The notes below the pieces were generated by a model. That model ran no database searches. It was given only the letters and a program-made list of their open reading frames with translations, and was not told the origin of the DNA. From Escherichia coli (GTDB lineage: Bacteria > Pseudomonadota > Gammaproteobacteria > Enterobacterales > Enterobacteriaceae), in NCBI RefSeq assembly GCF_001677475.2, contig NZ_CP015229.1: DNA of 64,000 bases; one strand, 5' to 3'. Each line of letters starts with the position of its first letter. Position 1 is the first letter of the stretch. The position numbers and the translations under genes were made by a program. This document shows, piece by piece, positions 8,162-23,133 of the stretch.

Positions 8162-8772
8162 TCTTGCTACAACTCTCCTCAGCCCAGGGACCGGAAGAAT
8201 GCTGCCTCGCAGTCAAAAAGGCGTTGGACAGGCTGATTAAAGAAGCATCCCAACAGCGTGTTGCGGTAACGGTGCTGGAGACAGAAACGGGCCGCTACTC
8301 TGATTCGCTGCGTTCAGCGCTGGTTTCTCTGGATGGCGACAACGCATGGGCATTAAGCGAAAGCTGGTGCGGCACTATTCAGTGGATTTGTCCGAGTCCG
8401 TATCGGCCTCATCATGGGCGCAAAAACTGGTTTCTGGGCATTGGGCGTTTTACCGCTGATGAGCAGGAACAATCGGATGCAATCCGTTATGAGACGCTGC
8501 GTTCGTCGGGGCCGGGCGGTCAACATGTCAATAAAACCGACTCGGCGGTACGCGCCACGCATCTGGCTACCGGAATTAGTGTGAAGGTTCAGTCAGAGCG
8601 CAGCCAGCATGCTAACAAACGGCTGGCGCGATTGCTGATCGCCTGGAAGCTGGAACAACAGCAACAGGAAAATAGCGCGGTGCTGAAATCGCAGCGGCGA
8701 ATGTTCCATCACCAGATTGAACGTGGCAACCCGCGACGGACATTTACAGGGATGGCTTTTATCGAAGGATAA
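8158..8772 (+). CDS. prfH: Peptide chain release factor homologue PrfH
   Basis: 204 aa from [15 protein letters not shown]; GGQ motif present ([17 protein letters not shown]); the longer ORF from 8074 overlaps rtcB and is taken as an extension artefact. Confidence 0.88.
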
Positions 8773-14181: not shown

Positions 14182-15285
14182 ATGAGTGACAGCCAGACGC
14201 TGGTGGTAAAACTCGGCACCAGTGTGCTAACAGGCGGATCGCGCCGCCTGAACCGTGCCCATATCGTTGAACTTGTTCGCCAGTGCGCGCAGTTACATGC
14301 CGCCGGGCATCGGATTGTTATTGTGACGTCGGGCGCGATCGCCGCCGGACGTGAGCACCTGGGTTACCCGGAACTGCCAGCGACTATCGCCTCGAAACAA
14401 CTGCTGGCGGCGGTAGGGCAGAGTCGACTGATTCAACTGTGGGAACAGCTGTTTTCGATTTATGGCATTCATGTCGGGCAAATGCTGCTGACCCGTGCTG
14501 ATATGGAAGACCGTGAACGCTTCCTGAACGCCCGCGACACCCTGCGTGCGTTGCTCGATAACAATATCGTTCCGGTAATCAATGAGAACGATGCTGTCGC
14601 TACTGCGGAGATTAAGGTCGGCGATAACGATAACCTTTCTGCGCTGGCGGCGATTCTGGCGGGTGCCGATAAACTGTTGCTGCTGACCGATCAAAAAGGT
14701 TTGTATACCGCTGACCCGCGCAGCAATCCGCAGGCAGAACTGATTAAAGATGTTTACGGCATTGATGACGCACTGCGCGCGATTGCCGGTGACAGCGTTT
14801 CAGGCCTCGGAACTGGCGGCATGAGTACCAAATTGCAGGCCGCAGACGTGGCTTGCCGTGCGGGTATCGACACCATTATTGCCGCGGGCAGCAAACCGGG
14901 CGTTATTGGTGATGTGATGGAAGGCATTTCCGTCGGTACGCTGTTCCATGCCCAGGCCACTCCGCTTGAAAACCGTAAACGCTGGATTTTCGGTGCGCCG
15001 CCTGCGGGTGAAATCACGGTAGATGAAGGGGCAACCGCCGCCATTCTTGAACGCGGCAGCTCCCTGTTGCCGAAAGGCATTAAAAGCGTGACTGGCAATT
15101 TCTCGCGTGGTGAAGTCATCCGCATTTGCAACCTCGAAGGCCGCGATATCGCCCACGGTGTCAGTCGTTACAACAGCGATGCATTACGCCGTATTGCCGG
15201 ACACCACTCGCAAGAAATTGATGCAATACTGGGATATGAATACGGCCCGGTTGCCGTTCACCGTGATGACATGATTACCCGTTAA
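14182..15285 (+). CDS. proB: Glutamate 5-kinase
   Basis: 367 aa from [19 protein letters not shown]; amino-acid kinase fold plus C-terminal PUA-like region; the ORF from 14095 is a 5' extension. Confidence 0.95.
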
Positions 15286-15296
15286 GGAGCAGGCCG

Positions 15297-16550
15297 ATGC
15301 TGGAACAAATGGGCATTGCCGCGAAGCAAGCCTCGTATAAATTAGCGCAACTCTCCAGCCGCGAAAAAAATCGCGTGCTGGAAAAAATCGCCGATGAACT
15401 GGAAGCACAAAGCGAAATCATCCTCAACGCTAACGCCCAGGATGTTGCAGACGCGCGTGCCAATGGCCTTAGCGAAGCGATGCTTGACCGTCTGGCACTG
15501 ACGCCCGCACGGTTGAAAGGCATTGCCGACGATGTGCGCCAGGTGTGCAACCTCGCCGATCCGGTGGGGCAGGTGATTGATGGTGGTGTGCTGGACAGCG
15601 GTCTGCGTCTGGAGCGTCGTCGCGTACCGCTGGGGGTGATTGGCGTGATTTATGAAGCTCGCCCGAACGTGACAGTTGATGTCGCTTCGCTGTGCCTGAA
15701 AACCGGTAACGCAGTGATCCTGCGCGGTGGCAAAGAAACCTGTCGCACTAACGCTGCAACGGTGGCGGTGATTCAGGACGCCCTGAAATCCTGCGATTTA
15801 CCGGCGGGTGCCGTGCAGGCGATTGATAATCCTGACCGTGCGCTGGTCAGTGAAATGCTGCGTATGGATAAATACATCGACATGTTGATCCCGCGCGGCG
15901 GGGCTGGTTTGCATAAACTGTGCCGCGAACAGTCGACGATCCCGGTGATCACTGGTGGTATAGGCGTATGCCATATTTACGTTGATGAAAGTGCAGAGAT
16001 CGCTGAAGCCCTGAAAGTCATCGTCAACGCGAAAACCCAGCGTCCGAGCACATGTAATACGGTTGAAACGTTGCTGGTAAATAAAAACATAGCAGATAGC
16101 TTCCTGCCCGCATTAAGCAAACAAATGGCGGAAAGCGGCGTGACATTACACGCAGATGCAGCTGCGCTGGCGCAGTTGCAGACAGGCCCCGCGAAGGTGG
16201 TGGCGGTTAAAGCCGAAGAGTATGACGATGAGTTTCTGTCATTAGATTTGAACGTCAAAATCGTCAGCGATCTTGACGATGCCATCGCCCATATTCGTGA
16301 ACACGGCACGCAACACTCCGATGCGATCCTGACCCGCGATATGCGCAACGCCCAGCGTTTTGTTAACGAAGTGGATTCGTCCGCTGTTTACGTTAACGCC
16401 TCTACGCGTTTTACCGACGGCGGCCAGTTTGGACTGGGTGCGGAAGTGGCGGTAAGCACACAAAAACTCCACGCGCGTGGCCCAATGGGGCTGGAAGCGC
16501 TGACCACTTACAAGTGGATCGGCATTGGTGATTACACCATTCGTGCGTAA
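15297..16550 (+). CDS. proA: Gamma-glutamyl phosphate reductase
   Basis: 417 aa, aldehyde dehydrogenase-type fold, immediately downstream of proB. Confidence 0.95.
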
Positions 16551-16664
16551 ATAAAACCGGGTGATGCAAAACTAGCCATTTGATTCACAAGGCCATTGAC
16601 GCATCGCCCGGTTAGTTTTAACCTTGTCCACCGTGATTCACGTTCGTGAACATGTCCTTTCAGG

Positions 16665-16740
16665 GCCGATATAGCTCAGTTGGTAGAGCAGCGCATTCGT
16701 AATGCGAAGGTCGTAGGTTCGACTCCTATTATCGGCACCA
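16665..16740 (+). tRNA. thrW: tRNA-Thr (anticodon CGU)
   Basis: 76 nt GCCGATATAGCTCAGTTGGTAGAGCAGCGCATTCGTAATGCGAAGGTCGTAGGTTCGACTCCTATTATCGGCACCA; cloverleaf with CGT anticodon and encoded CCA end. Confidence 0.95.
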
Positions 16741-16754
16741 TTTAAATCAATAAG

Positions 16755-17021
16755 TTACACATCATTAGTACCTTCCTTATTTCTTGACTGGGACAAATTT
16801 GGGACCGATGGGTTCAGAATCGAGTCTATTTGCCGTGCGTGTTCGGTAAGGTGATTAGGTGCGAGGTGAGCATATCGACGAACCATTTCAAGAGTTTCCC
16901 ATCCTCCCATTTCTGTAAGTGCAAGAAGAGAAACACTGGACTGAACCAGCCTGCTTGCCTTTGCTATCAAAGTACCTTGAGGACCAGATGATTTCTGGCG
17001 ATATTTACAGCGCGTCCGCAA
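16755..17021 (-). pseudogene. Tyrosine-recombinase (phage/P4-type integrase) C-terminal remnant
   Basis: Only about 50 C-terminal residues are integrase-like ([34 protein letters not shown], with the catalytic Tyr region); no N-terminal or core domains upstream; adjacent to the tRNA attachment site. Confidence 0.65.
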
Positions 17022-17107
17022 TGAGTTTTTCTCCGTGCCGCCAGTGACGTTCCCCGCTTTTTCAGTGCGGCGATAATATCAGCGGGATGCCAGTCCTGTT
17101 GTGTCAT
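16966..17107 (-). pseudogene. Ner/Nlp(SfsB)-like HTH regulator, 5' fragment fused to the integrase remnant
   Basis: Begins [24 protein letters not shown], matching the Ner/Nlp N-terminus as recalled, then diverges and stops after about 46 codons; a Ner-like segment (LIAKA) continues in the integrase-remnant frame. Confidence 0.45.
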
Positions 17108-17574
17108 ACAACCACCTCGCTGATAAATTTTACGCCGTCGGCGGTGCGCAGCCAGCGCGGGGCTTTGAGTCCTTCCATGAAATACCAGACCAGTTCACAC
17201 AACAGCCCGGTCAGGGTTTGTTCCGTTTTTGGTTCCGCCGGGCGTTCCAGCAGAAGCTGGAGTAGTGCGAGGCAGTATTCGCACAAGGAATCTGGTTCGG
17301 AAATAAAGTGCTCTGGTGTGGCGGGAAGGGTATCAACGGTCAGGCTTTCAATCAGATGCGGCGGGATGGGGTCGTGCAGCGTGGGGTGCAATAGCGCAAG
17401 AGCCGCGTGAAGCCGTCCGCAGAGCGCTAGCCGTAGCGCGGGATCGTCGGTTTCGATCAGGGTTTCGGCGAAGCGGGCGCAGTAATCGGCAAGGACAGTA
17501 AAATCCGTGGTGGCATTGAAGGGGGCGGACAGCAGATCGAGTAAATCGCAGTCAGGGGTGAGGGTTGTAGCCAT
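17104..17574 (-). CDS. Hypothetical protein, 156 aa, acidic and Leu-rich, no recognised domain
   Basis: ORF with an AGGAGA Shine-Dalgarno about 7 nt upstream of the ATG at 17574 (longest ORF starts at 17628); stop overlaps the ATG of the Ner-like fragment (ATGA); GC-rich relative to the neighbouring RT gene. Confidence 0.5.
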   Translation of the reverse strand: MATTLTPDCDLLDLLSAPFNATTDFTVLADYCARFAETLIETDDPALRLALCGRLHAALALLHPTLHDPIPPHLIESLTVDTLPATPEHFISEPDSLCEYCLALLQLLLERPAEPKTEQTLTGLLCELVWYFMEGLKAPRWLRTADGVKFISEVVV

Positions 17575-17917
17575 AGGGCGTCTCCTGTAACGGTTTATTA
17601 TGTCCGCCACTAGAGAGGCTAATCTCATGGGGGGCGGAACCGGACGGGGTTAGCCTTACCGGCGTTACAGGAAACCGGCGCGTCTTGCGACGCCCCCGCC
17701 CGGCCCGCCATTGAGGTGTAGCCGAACGCACGACACAAAAAAGACGCTGGTGCGTCAAGTGTCGCCTGTAACGGTTTTCAGGAGGCTAATCCCGACGCCT
17801 GATTTTGCAGGCGCGGGAGAAAGATACTGCGATTGGTCATGAGTGGCAAGGGCTACATCCTGTTTACCGACATCTCACGCAAAAATACCCTGATTATTAA
17901 TAGCGAAAATCAGTTTC

Positions 17918-20900
17918 TTATTTTGGCGGTAGCTTTTTGCGGTTCTTTGCCAATTGGAATCCTTCAGGTAACGGTTTGAATTTATCGCCGCCTTTAGGCC
18001 AGCGTTTTGCCCTGCTCTGAAATGCCCTTAACGAGTCGATATCCAGTGTTGCAGCGATCACAAAGTCATTATCGCCGCCCTTCACACGAGCAATATCACG
18101 CATAAAGGGTTCTTTTGCCGGGGAACGTACGCGACTATCGCCGTATTTTCGGTTATTCACTAAAATGGTATAGGCATGAATATCCAGCGCTGCTGATTCA
18201 ATCAACGATGCAAACGTATCCAGATCTTTATTCCAGCTCAATACCATTAATGCATCGAGCGCGCCCTGAAAACGGATCCTCGCTTTACTATTCTGGAGTT
18301 CAGAGCAAATCATAACGCCAAAATTGACGCCGTGATGAATATATACCGGCTTACGTTGTTTAACATTAAGTGTCGAGTCCCAAGACTTACCATAAGTTGA
18401 AAATAATGCCTCATCTTCACCTACGGCGGGTTCCAGCTTGGGTTGCCATATTTTGACACTCGCTGGATAGCCGAGTCTGTTATCTGAAAGGACAAGTACG
18501 GCCTCACTCTTCAGTTGATTATCGCCTAAGTGGCGGTATTCTGTTCCCGCAATTAGACTGATACCCGCCGAACTCAAACGATCAGCAATACTGTTAACCC
18601 AGCGTAACGGGATTGAAAGCTCGGGGAATAAAACATAATCAGGTTTAGGAGATAGTTTCAATGTTGCATTAACCAGTTCAGAAATCCGCTGGTACCTTGA
18701 ACGGGACAAGTTAGATTTATTGCAGGCCATTTTAGCCCAGTCGTCTTCCTCTGTTTTAATGCTGGTTAGCGCAACGACAATTTTATGTTTCCTGTCAGTG
18801 CCAATATGAATGAATTTCTTAGGCCGAGCTTTTTTTGTCGCTTCATCTGAGTCCTGCTCCGATGCTAGTAACGTCGGTTTGATCCATACACCGCGTAATG
18901 CTTGAGTATATTTTGCCCAAACGGTGGACGGTCTCTCATCTGGTTTTTTGTCGGATGTAGAGGGTAATCCAACACATTCGGGGGCCAGTTCTGATATTTC
19001 AGCGGGAGTTAAAGGACGTGTAGGGAAAATGTAAGGTAGGTAACTTTCGTTCTTACGATTTCCTTTAGCCACTTTTTCCAGTCGGGTATTCTTGGTTGAT
19101 TTCAAAAATAGCTTAATAACGTCAATATCAATAAGCGATGAGTCCCTCATTAATTTCAGTATTTTAACTTCTTTTTTACGATCACGCTGATTAACAAGTT
19201 TTTCTGCCGACTGACTCTTTACGATCTGTTTATAAGGTTCCTTTGCTAAATCAGCTCGAGCTACCAATGGCGCTTTTAAATAAAAATCTGCTGAATCAAA
19301 GCGAAGATCCAGTAAATCCTTTAGATTTGTCAGACTTTGTGAAATATGATTAAAAAATGTATCCGCAAGGCACTCTTCTTTCTTTGAACGTTTATCAAGA
19401 AATAATCTGTCAGGACTGTAATATCGTGTCGCTGCATCAACAAATAGCCAGCTTAATGTGCCTTTTATACAGCGCCAAAGATCATTTACTGCTCGAGTTT
19501 TGCAACCATTTATAGTCACTTCCTTACCTGAAGTAATCACCGATGCCAACAGGTTGATGGACTCGTAAGCTTTAAGTACAATTTTTTCCGCGTGCTGCCA
19601 TTCATTCATACTGATAGCAAAGCCAAGCAGCCTTGGCAGATAACTAAAATGTGCAAATAGATTATCAGCCCTAAGAATATGGTTGTAGGCAAACTGATAA
19701 AACTCTTCCCGCTGTTCTTTCCATTCACTTGGAGACAGATCTCGTGCCAGTGTTTCAACGTAGCGTAATTGCAGTGACCAGCCCAAACGACGAATGGTTA
19801 ATCCATCCGCACGGCGCAGAGTATCGGCATTTTCACCTACACTACCGGCAGCGGAAAGGACTTTAGCTGCGGTGGAGTGTTCCAGTTGATCCGGTGAAGG
19901 CATCAAGCGGTGTTCACTAGAAAGCTCGTAGATCTCCTTTTCGATACTGTCGAGCAGATCTATTCCTGCCCTCCCTTGAAGCACGAAAAGTTTTTGCTTA
20001 TCGGATTGTAACTGGATGGTGGTCTTACCCTGGAAATGCTCGCCCTGCTGTATTTGCCATATTTGTTTTTTCTCGTTTTTCAGATAAACGCAATCATTGC
20101 CAAGCCTATCTTGCAGCAATAACATAAATTCGTGATTATTAGTAATTTTACCTGTATCGCGTATTACAAGGAACATATCATCGACATAACGACCGTAGTG
20201 AATTGGCGACAGTTTTTCAATGACTAATTTATCCCAATGGTGTAGCAATATATTGGAAATGATCCGACTGGCTGTTAATCCAATGACCAGACCACCATTA
20301 ATAACAGGTGTTTTGTACGCTATTTTTTTTCCAAATGCCGCTGCGCCGTCAGACCAGTGCTTTAAGAATACAGCTAACTGTGCAGTAAACGCTTTTTCAT
20401 GCTCAGTCAGTTTTATGTTTAGTGTGTTATAGAGATCATCAGAGGTTATAGCCAGTGGATCAATAAAATGATAGTAACTTTTTAAATCCAGTGAGGCGGC
20501 GATAATGTCACGATCTTTTTCCAACTCGTCACGTATAGCTTTTAAGCCATCACCACGCCATTTTTGGTAGGGCTGGAAATAGGGGCTAAAAGAACCCACG
20601 GCACTGATATGGAATGGATTATCCTGCTCATTGCTAAATAATTCATCATTACGAATACGTTTTAGCCGCGCGCCATAACAACAGTTGTCTAAGCTGGCAT
20701 CAAATTTATGCCCGACCATATTAATCCATAGTGCAGAGATAATGTGACTATCAACCGGGAAGTCACCAATAATACGAAACTCTGGTATCAGATCAAAATT
20801 ATTAAATAAATGGTCGGCTGCTCGTTTAGGATTAGAAAAGTGGACGTGTCCATTTTGGAATTCATGTTTTTTCTTTGTGGTTAATTTTTTCGGTAACAAA

Positions 20901-21127
20901 CGAAATTTGCCAATCAACTTCTTATTGCTACTGAATCCATCTTCGCTCTGCAAAATATCTAAGAGTTCTTGCAGGTTTTCAATTAATTCCTGCTCATACT
21001 CGGCAAATTTGATAGCAACAGGAAATGTATTCTCAAAGAAGCTATCGGCTTTGGCTTTCCGGTAAGCGACCAGAAGGTCTTCAATCGTCAGATCATCCCA
21101 GCCAGTGAAAGTTGCCTGATATGTCAT
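17918..21127 (-). CDS. Reverse transcriptase fused to a C-terminal nitrilase (CN-hydrolase) domain; UG/Abi-type defence-associated RT (DRT type 1 / UG1-like architecture)
   Basis: 1069 aa. RT motifs: motif A ASLDLKSYYHFID, motif B GLVIGLTASRIISNILL, motif C YGRYVDDMFLV (about aa 310-320). C-terminal ~280 aa carry a nitrilase-like Glu/Cys pattern (VLFPELSIP ... GVMICSELQ). AT-rich gene in an island next to a tRNA. Confidence 0.85.
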   Translation of the reverse strand: MTYQATFTGWDDLTIEDLLVAYRKAKADSFFENTFPVAIKFAEYEQELIENLQELLDILQSEDGFSSNKKLIGKFRLLPKKLTTKKKHEFQNGHVHFSNPKRAADHLFNNFDLIPEFRIIGDFPVDSHIISALWINMVGHKFDASLDNCCYGARLKRIRNDELFSNEQDNPFHISAVGSFSPYFQPYQKWRGDGLKAIRDELEKDRDIIAASLDLKSYYHFIDPLAITSDDLYNTLNIKLTEHEKAFTAQLAVFLKHWSDGAAAFGKKIAYKTPVINGGLVIGLTASRIISNILLHHWDKLVIEKLSPIHYGRYVDDMFLVIRDTGKITNNHEFMLLLQDRLGNDCVYLKNEKKQIWQIQQGEHFQGKTTIQLQSDKQKLFVLQGRAGIDLLDSIEKEIYELSSEHRLMPSPDQLEHSTAAKVLSAAGSVGENADTLRRADGLTIRRLGWSLQLRYVETLARDLSPSEWKEQREEFYQFAYNHILRADNLFAHFSYLPRLLGFAISMNEWQHAEKIVLKAYESINLLASVITSGKEVTINGCKTRAVNDLWRCIKGTLSWLFVDAATRYYSPDRLFLDKRSKKEECLADTFFNHISQSLTNLKDLLDLRFDSADFYLKAPLVARADLAKEPYKQIVKSQSAEKLVNQRDRKKEVKILKLMRDSSLIDIDVIKLFLKSTKNTRLEKVAKGNRKNESYLPYIFPTRPLTPAEISELAPECVGLPSTSDKKPDERPSTVWAKYTQALRGVWIKPTLLASEQDSDEATKKARPKKFIHIGTDRKHKIVVALTSIKTEEDDWAKMACNKSNLSRSRYQRISELVNATLKLSPKPDYVLFPELSIPLRWVNSIADRLSSAGISLIAGTEYRHLGDNQLKSEAVLVLSDNRLGYPASVKIWQPKLEPAVGEDEALFSTYGKSWDSTLNVKQRKPVYIHHGVNFGVMICSELQNSKARIRFQGALDALMVLSWNKDLDTFASLIESAALDIHAYTILVNNRKYGDSRVRSPAKEPFMRDIARVKGGDNDFVIAATLDIDSLRAFQSRAKRWPKGGDKFKPLPEGFQLAKNRKKLPPK

Positions 21128-21422
21128 GCGTTATCGTCCTTAGATTAAAGTCTGTACAGAATTAGCCAGCCGTTTCATGCCCGAAGGAGGTGCTCTTGAC
21201 ACCAGTAATCCATCAGTGAGGCTGGCAATAATTTTGATTTGTATCCATGTTACACGCTCCCCGCAACCAGTCCGAGCATATATTTGTCACATTTTTCCCG
21301 AAAGTGATTAAGTTTGAATTTTTTGTTTAATGTCGATTTTTAGTCGACAAAATGAGGAATAAGTAAATTATTTCTTGCTGTGGCGTATCCCTGAACCTAC
21401 ACTGGTTTAAATATTTGTACTA

Positions 21423-22226
21423 ATGTCTATTCAGGGGCGACATTTGCCAAATTATCTAAACTGGCTGATGCAGAATACGCTACCCGGTCAGGTGCTGCTC
21501 CAGTCATGGCTTACCCGCAACGGCGTAGATCGTAAGCTCTCTTACCTCTATGTCCAGAATGGCTGGCTCAGGCGGATCGCTCACGGCGTATACTGCCGGA
21601 CGGGTCGTGAACCGGACTGGGTGGACGCGGTTTACTGCCTGCAAACACAGTGGGAAAAGCCAGTACGGGTGGCGGGGCTAACCAGCCTTGCGCTTCAGGG
21701 CCATGCGCACTATACCGAACCGGGTAAGCCGCAAATCTGGCTCGCGCTTCCGGCTTACGTCAAACTGCCGGGATGGTTTGCTGCCTTCGAACAATCTGCA
21801 ACATTTATCACGCTGTATACATCGGGCCTTACCGTTGATGTCACGTCATTTACTACGGAACTGAAAATTGGCGACCGGCAGTTAGCAGGCAGTGCCCCGG
21901 AACTGGCCGCGTATGAGATCGCCTGCGGCGTTCCTTCGTTGATATCGTTCGAACATGCCGATGCTCTGTTTCAGGGGATGAATCTTCTCAGCCCGCGTAA
22001 ATTGCAGGCGTTACTCTGCGCCAGTCATTCGGTTAAAACCAACCGGGTGATGCTTTACCTTGCCCGGCGTAATGGACACCCTTATTTTCAGTATATTGAT
22101 CAAAGCGGTATAGAAACAGGTACGGGAAAGCGGCAAATCATACCCGGCGGCTGGCTGGAGCCGGATTATCAAATTACTGTTCCACGCGAATTTAAACCGG
22201 AAGGAGTCGAAGATGGATCTGCGTGA
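21423..22226 (+). CDS. AbiEi-family antitoxin / transcriptional regulator (type IV TA, abortive infection)
   Basis: 267 aa; N-terminal winged-helix pattern (LTRNGVDRKLSYLYVQNGWLRRIAHGVYCRTG) typical of AbiEi; overlaps the downstream nucleotidyltransferase gene by 14 nt. Confidence 0.65.
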   Translation: MSIQGRHLPNYLNWLMQNTLPGQVLLQSWLTRNGVDRKLSYLYVQNGWLRRIAHGVYCRTGREPDWVDAVYCLQTQWEKPVRVAGLTSLALQGHAHYTEPGKPQIWLALPAYVKLPGWFAAFEQSATFITLYTSGLTVDVTSFTTELKIGDRQLAGSAPELAAYEIACGVPSLISFEHADALFQGMNLLSPRKLQALLCASHSVKTNRVMLYLARRNGHPYFQYIDQSGIETGTGKRQIIPGGWLEPDYQITVPREFKPEGVEDGSA

Positions 22227-23133
22227 TAGCTATACCCGGCAGGTCAAACTGTTGATGGCCGCTCTGCCGCATGTGGCGAAGGAGTCCTGTTTCGCGTTGA
22301 AAGGCGGCACGGCAATCAATTTGTTTGTGCAGGATTTTCCCCGTCTGTCGGTGGATATCGATCTGGCGTATAAGACTTTTGCGGATCGCGATACCGATTT
22401 GACGGCGATCAACGACGCTTTGAAGAGAATTACTGCATCGCTGAACAGTAAACCGGGGATTACCGCGATTCGGCAGGAAAATAAAACGGATGAAAAGCGC
22501 ATCATTGTGAATACGGCTGATGCCCAGATTAAGATCGAGGTTAGTCCGGTCTGGCGTGGGCTGTTGTTGCCTCCGGCAGAAATGTCGGTGTGCGAACGTG
22601 TGGAAATGGAGTATGGCTTCACCACTATGAGTGTCGTTTCGCTGGCGGATCTTTATGGCGGTAAAATCTGCGCAGCGCTTGATCGTCAGCACCCGCGCGA
22701 TCTGTTTGATGTGCTGAATATGCTGGAGAAACCGGGACTGATGCGGGAGATCTTTGACGGTTTTCTTTGTTATCTGGCAGGCCATCCCCGCCCCATTGCC
22801 GAGTTGCTGGCCCCAAACTGGGATACAGAGCGGATCACGACGCTGTATGCCCAGGAATTTTCGGGGATGACTCAGCAGGAAACGTCGCTGGAATCGCTGC
22901 TGTCAGTAACGACTTTGCTGCCGCAGGCGTTGAAGTCACATCTTACGGATCTGGATCGCGAGTTCTTGCTCAGTTTTAAGCAAAACAGCCCTGACTGGTC
23001 GCGGTATCGCTATCCTGAAATTCAGCATCTTCCGGCTATTCGCTGGAAGCAACGCAATCTGGCGGTGCTTAAAGATAAAAATCCGGCGAAGTATGTGGCG
23101 GCGGTGAATAAGCTAGAGAGGGTGCTGGAGTAA
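22213..23133 (+). CDS. AbiEii/AbiGii-family nucleotidyltransferase toxin (DUF1814)
   Basis: 306 aa; N-terminal LKGGTAINLF and DIDLAY motifs of the AbiEii nucleotidyltransferase fold; translationally coupled to the upstream AbiEi-like gene. Confidence 0.75.
   Translation: MDLRDSYTRQVKLLMAALPHVAKESCFALKGGTAINLFVQDFPRLSVDIDLAYKTFADRDTDLTAINDALKRITASLNSKPGITAIRQENKTDEKRIIVNTADAQIKIEVSPVWRGLLLPPAEMSVCERVEMEYGFTTMSVVSLADLYGGKICAALDRQHPRDLFDVLNMLEKPGLMREIFDGFLCYLAGHPRPIAELLAPNWDTERITTLYAQEFSGMTQQETSLESLLSVTTLLPQALKSHLTDLDREFLLSFKQNSPDWSRYRYPEIQHLPAIRWKQRNLAVLKDKNPAKYVAAVNKLERVLE

Follow-up and report, generated by a model that had tools for sequence, protein, structure and literature searches.

The short GC-rich interval at the 3' end of the gene for a reverse transcriptase (RT)-nitrilase raises the question whether it encodes an RNA partner of this enzyme or belongs to something else. 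The original prediction left the choice between a structured non-coding RNA, by implication linked to the RT, a repeated operator and a recombination scar. The reading favoured here, with a probability of about 0.88, is that the region is an antisense-RNA immunity module of the P4 type (P1/P7 c4 type) that is part of the backbone of a decayed integrative island at tRNA-Thr (thrW) and does not belong to the RT. The intergenic gap between the RT stop and the start of the following 156-aa ORF measures 343 nt (17575-17917, in the coordinates of the window, i.e. the whole 64-kb stretch of DNA that was analysed), and the structured module spans only about 17560-17850 of this gap region. All the features noticed before, namely the GC jump, the direct repeats, the inverted partner and three hairpins, are present. 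The GC content is 0.59-0.62 over 17400-17800 versus 0.34-0.45 across most of the RT gene. The repeats are more frequent than chance predicts: the minus-strand sequence AAACCGTTACAGG has two exact copies in the window (17584-17596 and 17765-17777), where 0.05 matches are expected and none of 100 shuffles gave two. GATTAGCCTC likewise occurs twice (17615-17624 and 17782-17791; 0.09 expected), so that the existence of this pair was rightly seen, the position given for its first copy (17614) being off by one base. The inverted partner CGTTACAGG occupies 17663-17671, and a second inverted pair, which had escaped attention, is formed by 17645-17656 with 17783-17794.

Positions 15000-23000 were scanned on both strands with Rfam, which yielded three overlapping or adjacent matches, all on the minus strand. 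One of these is an 89-nt C4/CI antisense RNA (17627..17715, minus strand), which matched model RF01695 over positions 1-87 of 87 with 73.7 bits (gathering score 45; E about 2e-13). It has the C4 architecture of a long closing stem that encloses two hairpins, the first of which is the previously noted GCGTC-GCAA-GACGC, and its minimum free energy (MFE) structure equals the Rfam structure. The RNA fold prediction that had been called for showed that the segment is more stable than shuffled sequences (MFE -50.3 kcal/mol, z = -3.81), none of 200 shuffles being as stable. In an alignment of 16 C4 sequences 10 pairs of the helices carried compensatory changes, a number reached by none of 500 shuffles, and 84.6% of cells were paired against at most 58% in slid registers. 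A C4 covariance model built in the course of this work (R1) scored the C4 of the window at 94 bits. Two parts of the molecule are left unpaired and form its antisense elements: the loop a' UUUCCUGUAACG (17663-17674) and the single-stranded b' AAGGCUAACCCCG (17645-17657). Score and covarying structure, together with the duplicated targets and the overlap with a ribosome-binding site described below, place the RNA in the C4 family.

Upstream of C4 the isrK model RF01394 was matched over its full length (positions 1-77 of 77) by 17737..17814 of the minus strand, with 68 bits (gathering score 50; E 2.6e-13). This is the IsrK-like leader RNA, known as seqA RNA in P4. The third match, to RF03163 (c4-a1b1), overlaps it (17827..17775) and stays just below the gathering score (43.8 bits versus 46.7). 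The leader consists of a 5' hairpin (17795-17814; GCGCCTG-CAAAAT-CAGGCGT), the target b1 (17781-17794), which is complementary to b', the target a1 (17761-17777), which is complementary to a', and an intrinsic terminator that was found by a terminator scan and in which the hairpin GACGC-ACCA-GCGTC (stem 17743-17756) is followed by T6 (17737-17742). Its fold has a z of -2.05. With a score above gathering, and with a1/b1 lying between a hairpin at the 5' end and a Rho-independent terminator at the 3' end, the leader is a member of the IsrK/seqA family. A promoter scan of 17400-18100 found one promoter-like site only, a sigma-70-like TTGCCA, 17-nt spacer, TATCTT (17821..17849, minus strand; 9/12 matches), and the transcription start that it predicts falls where the isrK model begins. 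For further comparison the module was aligned with that of P4, those of three other E. coli thrW islands, that of an E. coli tRNA-Asn island and that of a Serratia locus; the -35 CTTGCC was invariant in 7/7 modules, P4 included. Judged by this alignment, the promoter is the positional homologue of P4 PLE and the first conserved element of the module. Of the options offered originally, the structured non-coding RNA has thus held up, in the form of a C4/CI-type antisense RNA and an IsrK/seqA-like leader RNA encoded here.

The direct repeats find their counterpart in the antisense RNA, both pairs being complementary to a' and b', its unpaired parts. Downstream of C4 lie b2 GAGATTAGCCTCTC (17613..17626, minus strand), which is a direct repeat of b1 and complementary to b', and a2 AAACCGTTACAGGAGAC (17580..17596, minus strand), which is complementary to a'. 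As had been proposed, a repeat copy covers the ribosome-binding region of the 156-aa gene: a2 contains the Shine-Dalgarno (SD) sequence AGGAG (17582-17586), located 7 nt before the ATG at 17574. The loop/target duplexes of the window have energies of -13.6, -17.4, -17.7 and about -10 kcal/mol, where -17.4 belongs to the 12-bp a'-a2 duplex and the weak value of about -10 to b2-b', which contains mismatches. In addition, the SD is sequestered in cis when the b2-a2 segment folds on itself as a hairpin (z = -2.4). In every variant that was aligned or inspected, a2 carries or abuts a purine-rich ribosome-binding stretch, mostly GGAG but GAGGTAA in the variant L099, which precedes the start codon by 5-9 nt.

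Loops and targets change together between variants. This was judged by duplex energies and alignment, since G-U pairs and shifts of register made a covariation test on exact 9-mers too strict. In a 6x6 energy matrix of the window, two E. coli thrW islands, Serratia, P4 and SfV, the cognate duplex was the most stable in 6/6 rows for a'-a1 and again in 6/6 for a'-a2, with -10 to -17 kcal/mol for cognate and -1.3 to -11 for non-cognate a' duplexes; the b'-b sites change together across variants in the same way. A scan of IMG/VR in which the conserved stem of hairpin 2 was sought and its 7-nt loop left free gave 120 modules with 8 genuine loop variants; in each of the latter a' and b' are both matched by an upstream and a downstream site. 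Two further pattern matches (L035 and L064) were unrelated GC-rich sequences and were discarded. The window combines a' CCUGUAACG with a sites CGTTACAGG (twice) and b' GGCUAA with b sites TTAGCC, SfV has a' CCUUGAUCA with a sites (T/C)GATCAAGG and b' CGCCAA with TTGGCG, and Serratia has a' CCAGUAUGG with a sites CATACTGG and b' GGUCAA with TTGACC. Among the IMG/VR variants, L011 pairs a' CCGUAUGCG with a sites TGCATACGG, L078 b' GACCAA with TTGGTC and L099 b' UGCAAA with TTTGCA. This is the pattern expected of an antisense RNA whose loops set immunity specificity. A seeming third repeat copy, the 10-mer AAACCGTTAC at 17968-17977 in the RT gene, encodes the conserved peptide KFKPLPEGF and was set aside as a coincidence; the same 10-mer was also found beside C4s of different specificity.

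The immunity region of phage P4 (NC_001609) contains the same two Rfam families in the same order as the window, with C4 at 8507..8420 (74.9 bits), which is the CI RNA, and isrK at 8692..8615 (60.8 bits), the leader downstream of PLE. The two modules are in register from the -35 and -10 elements through the 5' hairpin, b1, a1, the terminator and its T-run, and further through C4/CI, b2/a2 (seqC) ending in GGAG, the ATG and the first 7 codons. The 65-aa P4 ORF at 8365..8168 is kil, and its size and position fit the published gene; the N-terminal MATTLTP of the 156-aa ORF is identical to that of Kil, the remainder being unrelated. P4 differs from the window in its a'/b' (CCUGUGAAG / UCUCAC versus CCUGUAACG / GGCUAA) and in about 85 extra nt between terminator and CI. 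It also differs in the genes downstream (kil, epsilon and alpha versus the 156-aa ORF and a Ner-like HTH gene) and in the upstream neighbour, which is vis/PLL in P4 and defence cargo in the window. Unlike P4, the window is without sid, delta, psu, cos and primase. That IsrK corresponds to P4 seqA and C4 to the P4 CI RNA, and that CI pairs with seqA and seqC and thereby causes premature termination of the left operon, has been described (PMC4825925, PMC3632133).

According to the Rfam family definition and the literature, the c4 system of P1 and P7 (immI: c4-icd-ant; RF01695, RF03163) resembles the window in that the antisense RNA and its targets are on one transcript, in the a' and b' elements, in the duplicated a1 b1 / a2 b2 with a specificity set by the loops, and in a downstream target pair at the ribosome-binding site of the first ORF, as a2 covers the SD here. 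In P4 and P1 the C4 RNA is excised as a stable small RNA, a species of about 77-80 nt being characteristic of the family. P1 and P7 regulate icd and ant, neither of which is found here, and the element in the window is the remnant of a chromosomal island, not a plasmid prophage. IsrK-STnc1160 of Gifsy-1 in Salmonella (RF01394) shares with the window a terminated leader and a read-through mRNA from one promoter, a C4-like RNA (STnc1160) downstream, and a structure that sequesters the SD before the first small ORF; however, it controls orf45-anrP and through them the antiterminator AntQ, and such genes are absent here (PMC4825925). A superficial likeness only exists with the ncRNAs of class 2 UG/Abi systems (DRT2, DRT9, DRT3) and with retron msr/msd, in that a structured RNA is located beside a defence RT. 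Unlike these, the RNA of the window shows no conservation with the RT, is equipped with a promoter and a terminator of its own and belongs to a phage immunity family, and the RT beside it is of class 3 and needs no template (PMC13275509).

The RT gene itself (17918..21127, minus strand) encodes a UG5-large RT-nitrilase of 1069 aa that matches the PADLOC model RT_UG5-nitrilase over its full length with 1031.7 bits. It was found in 260/5426 complete E. coli genomes at about 98.5% identity, versus 814-1137 E. coli genomes for the unit of C4 and 156-aa ORF. The stop is followed by a 3' untranslated tail of the RT cassette of about 67 nt (17850..17917), which is AT-richer, is near-identical in the RT-bearing E. 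coli islands and is unrelated in those that carry a restriction-modification (RM) system or RHS; the RT-proximal segment (17850-17925) showed no fold beyond that of shuffles (z = 0.09). Similarity between RT-bearing and RM-bearing islands starts exactly at the -35 hexamer, at about 17850. In E. coli C9 the same thrW site carries a type I hsdRMS operon between AbiE and a module that is 97.9% identical to that of the window, and strain N3 has the same arrangement with a module of 81.6% identity. The neighbour is an RHS element in tRNA-Asn islands, and a DUF4747 gene with a 185-aa gene in Klebsiella; in both cases C4 is located immediately upstream of a 153-aa homologue of the 156-aa ORF. RT-bearing islands have at least three a/b specificities (that of the window, the Z1323/042 type and that of Serratia), and the specificity of the window is also that of an RM-bearing island. 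Among the cargo documented for the psu-int hotspot of P4 is a UG5 RT-nitrilase (PMC9122126). Taken together, the comparisons show that the RT gene is an independent and interchangeable cargo beside the module.

On the other side of the module, the 156-aa ORF (17104..17574, minus strand) is the first gene 3' of it. Its product had no match in Pfam, NCBIfam, PHROGs or PADLOC. The family comprises 616 homologues in Enterobacterales, all named 'hypothetical' except for some longer gene calls that extend upstream across C4 and bear the name 'ash family protein' (PF10554). At every locus examined C4 was directly upstream of a gene of this family. The next gene (16970..17107, minus strand) overlaps the stop of the 156-aa ORF and is a truncated Ner/SfsB-like HTH gene, which stops after 46 codons. 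The intact 75-aa HTH protein of Serratia L129 matches NF007670 (SfsB) with 108 bits, below the cutoff of that model, and the gene is named HTH_35 in other islands. In intact relatives the operon continues with the Ner/SfsB-like HTH gene, an HTH_3 protein and an Integrase_1-type gene. As the operon of the window is truncated after the 156-aa ORF, the module now governs at most that ORF.

The locus adjoins tRNA-Thr(CGT) and proBA, and an integrase fragment is located next to thrW. The divergent genes on the other side of the RT were identified by PADLOC as AbiEi and AbiEii. In the annotations of homologous thrW islands only integrase fragments, AbiE, cargo, the 156-aa ORF and the HTH gene are found, and the ORF map of the window is alike. 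The set of hallmarks of P4-like satellites (psu, delta, sid, alpha primase and cos, together with a P4-type integrase) was absent from the homologous thrW islands and from the ORF map of the window. Only the immunity region is P4-like, and the island was therefore not classed as a P4-like satellite. The island is decayed and has retained neither replication nor late genes, and the module may now control one small ORF or be a still-intact relic.

That the region would be the ncRNA partner or template of the adjacent RT, as in retrons or the class 2 systems DRT2, DRT3 and DRT9, is suggested by its position immediately 3' of the RT, by its high degree of structure and by the recurrence of the RT-C4 adjacency in Serratia marcescens with an RT of 81% identity. 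A wider survey argues against it. Twenty-nine RT homologue loci from GTDB species genomes were scanned with a purpose-built C4 covariance model, and of the 22 whose available 3' flank reached at least 300 nt, 21 had no C4 within it, only S. marcescens being positive; the loci without C4 include two from Enterobacteriaceae in which the RT is 79-80% identical. Conservation across homologous RT loci, as the idea of an RT-linked RNA had implied, was thus not found. Moreover, the module stays when the RT is swapped for R-M, RHS or DUF4747 cargo, the homology breaks at its own promoter, RT-bearing islands carry differing C4 specificities, and it is homologous to the immunity regions of P4, SfV and Stx phages, which have no RT. 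The RTs of UG/Abi class 3, to which DRT1 and the UG5 proteins belong (those assayed being DRT5S/L), are reported to perform untemplated, protein-primed DNA synthesis (PMC13275509), and a UG5-large system requires only its RT and nitrilase domains, RNA-seq showing no flanking ncRNA (bioRxiv 10.64898/2025.12.16.694600). A partnership with the RT is consequently regarded as extremely improbable; the adjacency exists because cargo was inserted next to the immunity promoter of the island. Scarcely more credit is given to the idea that a DNA-binding protein such as the downstream Ner-like HTH protein recognises the direct repeats as its operators. There are two direct-repeat pairs about 170-180 bp apart, and intact relatives do have a Ner/SfsB-like HTH gene in the operon. 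However, for each repeat the C4 RNA offers an exactly complementary unpaired stretch, and from one variant to the next all three copies vary in concert, something that would not be required of a protein operator. In the window the repeats are still intact although the HTH gene is truncated, and the a2 copy is on the SD and not on a promoter. The repeats are RNA target sites, and the covariation of the loops with both targets excludes a protein operator as well as a recombination scar as their explanation.

Two other alternatives accept the RNAs and differ on what they do. In the first, control would be positive and of the IsrK type, the leader acting in trans to open the SD hairpin and activate the 156-aa ORF, with C4 as a mere modulator. 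The full-length fit of the leader to the isrK model is consistent with this, as is the b2-a2 hairpin, which hides the SD like that of the translationally inactive isrK-orf45 mRNA (PMC4825925). Since the leader homologue of Gifsy-1 is an activator of the translation that follows it (PMC4825925), the short leader RNA could regulate in either direction. Yet a1/b1 of the leader have the same sense as a2/b2 and cannot pair with them, so that the leader can only compete for C4, and the complementarity and covariation of a'/b' point to C4 as the pairing partner; we therefore consider activation by the leader unlikely. About as doubtful, in our opinion, is that the C4 module is genuine and nevertheless a functionless relic or scar of a deleted satellite. 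Most backbone genes have been lost, the integrase at thrW is a fragment and the HTH gene is truncated, and genes for helper exploitation or replication are not annotated in the homologous islands. Against this, the promoter, the terminator, the C4 stems, both target pairs and the 156-aa ORF are intact here and in more than 800 E. coli genomes, allelic variants at thrW have retained loop-target complementarity through coordinated changes, and the 156-aa family is conserved across Enterobacterales.

For the antisense-RNA immunity module, a mechanism can be proposed in which transcription, RNA processing and actual repression are inferred from the literature on P4, P1 and IsrK. The promoter (17849..17821, minus strand) would be constitutive and would start the leader RNA near 17814. 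Most transcripts would end at the terminator (17756..17737), which would give an IsrK/seqA-like RNA of about 78 nt with b1 and a1. Read-through transcripts would contain the 89-nt C4/CI RNA (17715..17627), which would be processed to a stable RNA. Its a' loop and b' strand are expected to find their partners in a1/b1 of the leader and in b2/a2 just before the first ORF. Pairing at a2 would cover the SD of the 156-aa ORF and block its translation, and would result in premature termination or polarity on the downstream genes, as in P4 and P1; pairing at a1/b1, beside the terminator, would reinforce termination. The operon would thus be shut off, the sequences of a' and b' setting the immunity specificity, and the self-fold of b2-a2 could also hide the SD, as in the isrK-orf45 mRNA.

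The RNA belongs to an already-known family in its canonical architecture, the long-known C4/CI switch of P1, P7 and P4-type elements. The main value of the assignment is one of correction, because a structured RNA beside a defence RT is tempting to misread as the template of that RT. A further role can be put forward only tentatively and is considered improbable: C4 might have been kept in this much-reduced island for its own usefulness, a constitutively made RNA giving immunity in trans against incoming P4-like satellites or lambdoid phages of the same specificity, or might be the master switch of an undescribed family of tRNA-linked islands. If the former were true, C4 would be a third, RNA-only determinant of defence or exclusion beside AbiE and the RT-nitrilase. 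If the latter were true, the backbone of the family would consist of AbiE, a cargo slot, C4, a 153-156-aa ORF, a Ner-like HTH gene, Integrase_1 and a P4-type integrase, with the cargo slot exactly at the -35 hexamer of the promoter. The junction of cargo and backbone at the module promoter is a handy landmark for cargo mining in this island family. Annotation (PGAP, Pfam PF10554) labels the ORF on top of the RNA gene as 'ash family protein' and leaves the RNA itself unannotated. In the E. coli and Klebsiella records examined, the RNA was unannotated and the overlapping ORF had received this name in most.

Judged by sequence identity, the locus in the window is a mosaic in which the RT side (17850-21127) and the C4 unit (17560-17850), a P4-type antisense-RNA immunity module, differ in their relationships. 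The RT gene has ~98.5% identity to its counterparts in 260 E. coli genomes, whereas the C4 unit beside it shows only ~90% identity to most RT-bearing islands. The latter does reach 98-99% identity to the island of E. coli C9, which bears a restriction-modification (R-M) system, and to strain F2_81.

One island backbone recurs in Enterobacterales at tRNA-Thr and tRNA-Asn sites (window 16665-23133 and comparison loci L005, L007, L008, L129 and L158-L164). It starts with AbiEi/AbiEii, followed by a variable cargo slot, the C4 module and a 153-156-aa ORF; next come an HTH_35 Ner-like gene, in some loci an HTH_3 gene, then a 294-aa Integrase_1/Phage_int_SAM_2 gene and lastly a P4-type integrase. 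The slot was found to hold the UG5 RT-nitrilase, a type I R-M system, RHS, or DUF4747 with a 185-aa gene, and the cargo junction coincides precisely with the leader promoter's -35. In the window the upstream neighbour of the RT-nitrilase is a divergent AbiEi/AbiEii pair. No transmembrane partner gene was present downstream of this UG5-large enzyme (flanks 17575-17917 and 21128-21422). Therefore it resembles the stand-alone 'DRT11' of Sinorhizobium; such a partner is found in canonical UG5-large systems and in the example from the P4 hotspot.

The sequence GTAACGGTTT (minus strand: AAACCGTTAC) recurs without mismatch a third time at 17968-17977, within the RT gene, where it is created by the codons of the conserved C-terminal motif KFKPLPEGF. 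It was considered as a third target of the C4 RNA. However, the same copy is found beside C4 modules with a different specificity and was therefore rejected as a coincidence.

The 156-aa ORF (17104-17574, minus strand), which C4 would control, belongs to a family widespread in Enterobacterales, with 616 homologues (E. coli, Salmonella, Klebsiella, Dickeya, Pectobacterium and Hafnia); Pfam, NCBIfam, PHROGs and PADLOC gave no match. Similarity to P4 Kil is confined to the first seven residues (MATTLTP). Within 16741-17107 (minus strand), a Ner/SfsB-like HTH gene, cut off after 46 codons, overlaps the stop of the 156-aa ORF, and an integrase 3' fragment lies between this gene and tRNA-Thr. The intact gene in the Serratia locus L129 (6509-6736) encodes 75 aa.

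ORFs annotated as 'ash family protein' (Pfam PF10554, Phage_ASH) sit squarely over the C4 RNA gene, which itself lacks annotation there: 17552-17758 (minus strand) in the window, 12141-12314 in L001 and 9865-10023 in L158. These are probably coding sequences mis-called over a structured RNA.

The IMG/VR contig L065 combines a window-type a' loop (CCUGUAACG) with an SfV-type b' (CGCCAA). Compared with the window, this arrangement indicates that the specificities of these two antisense elements are reassorted independently.
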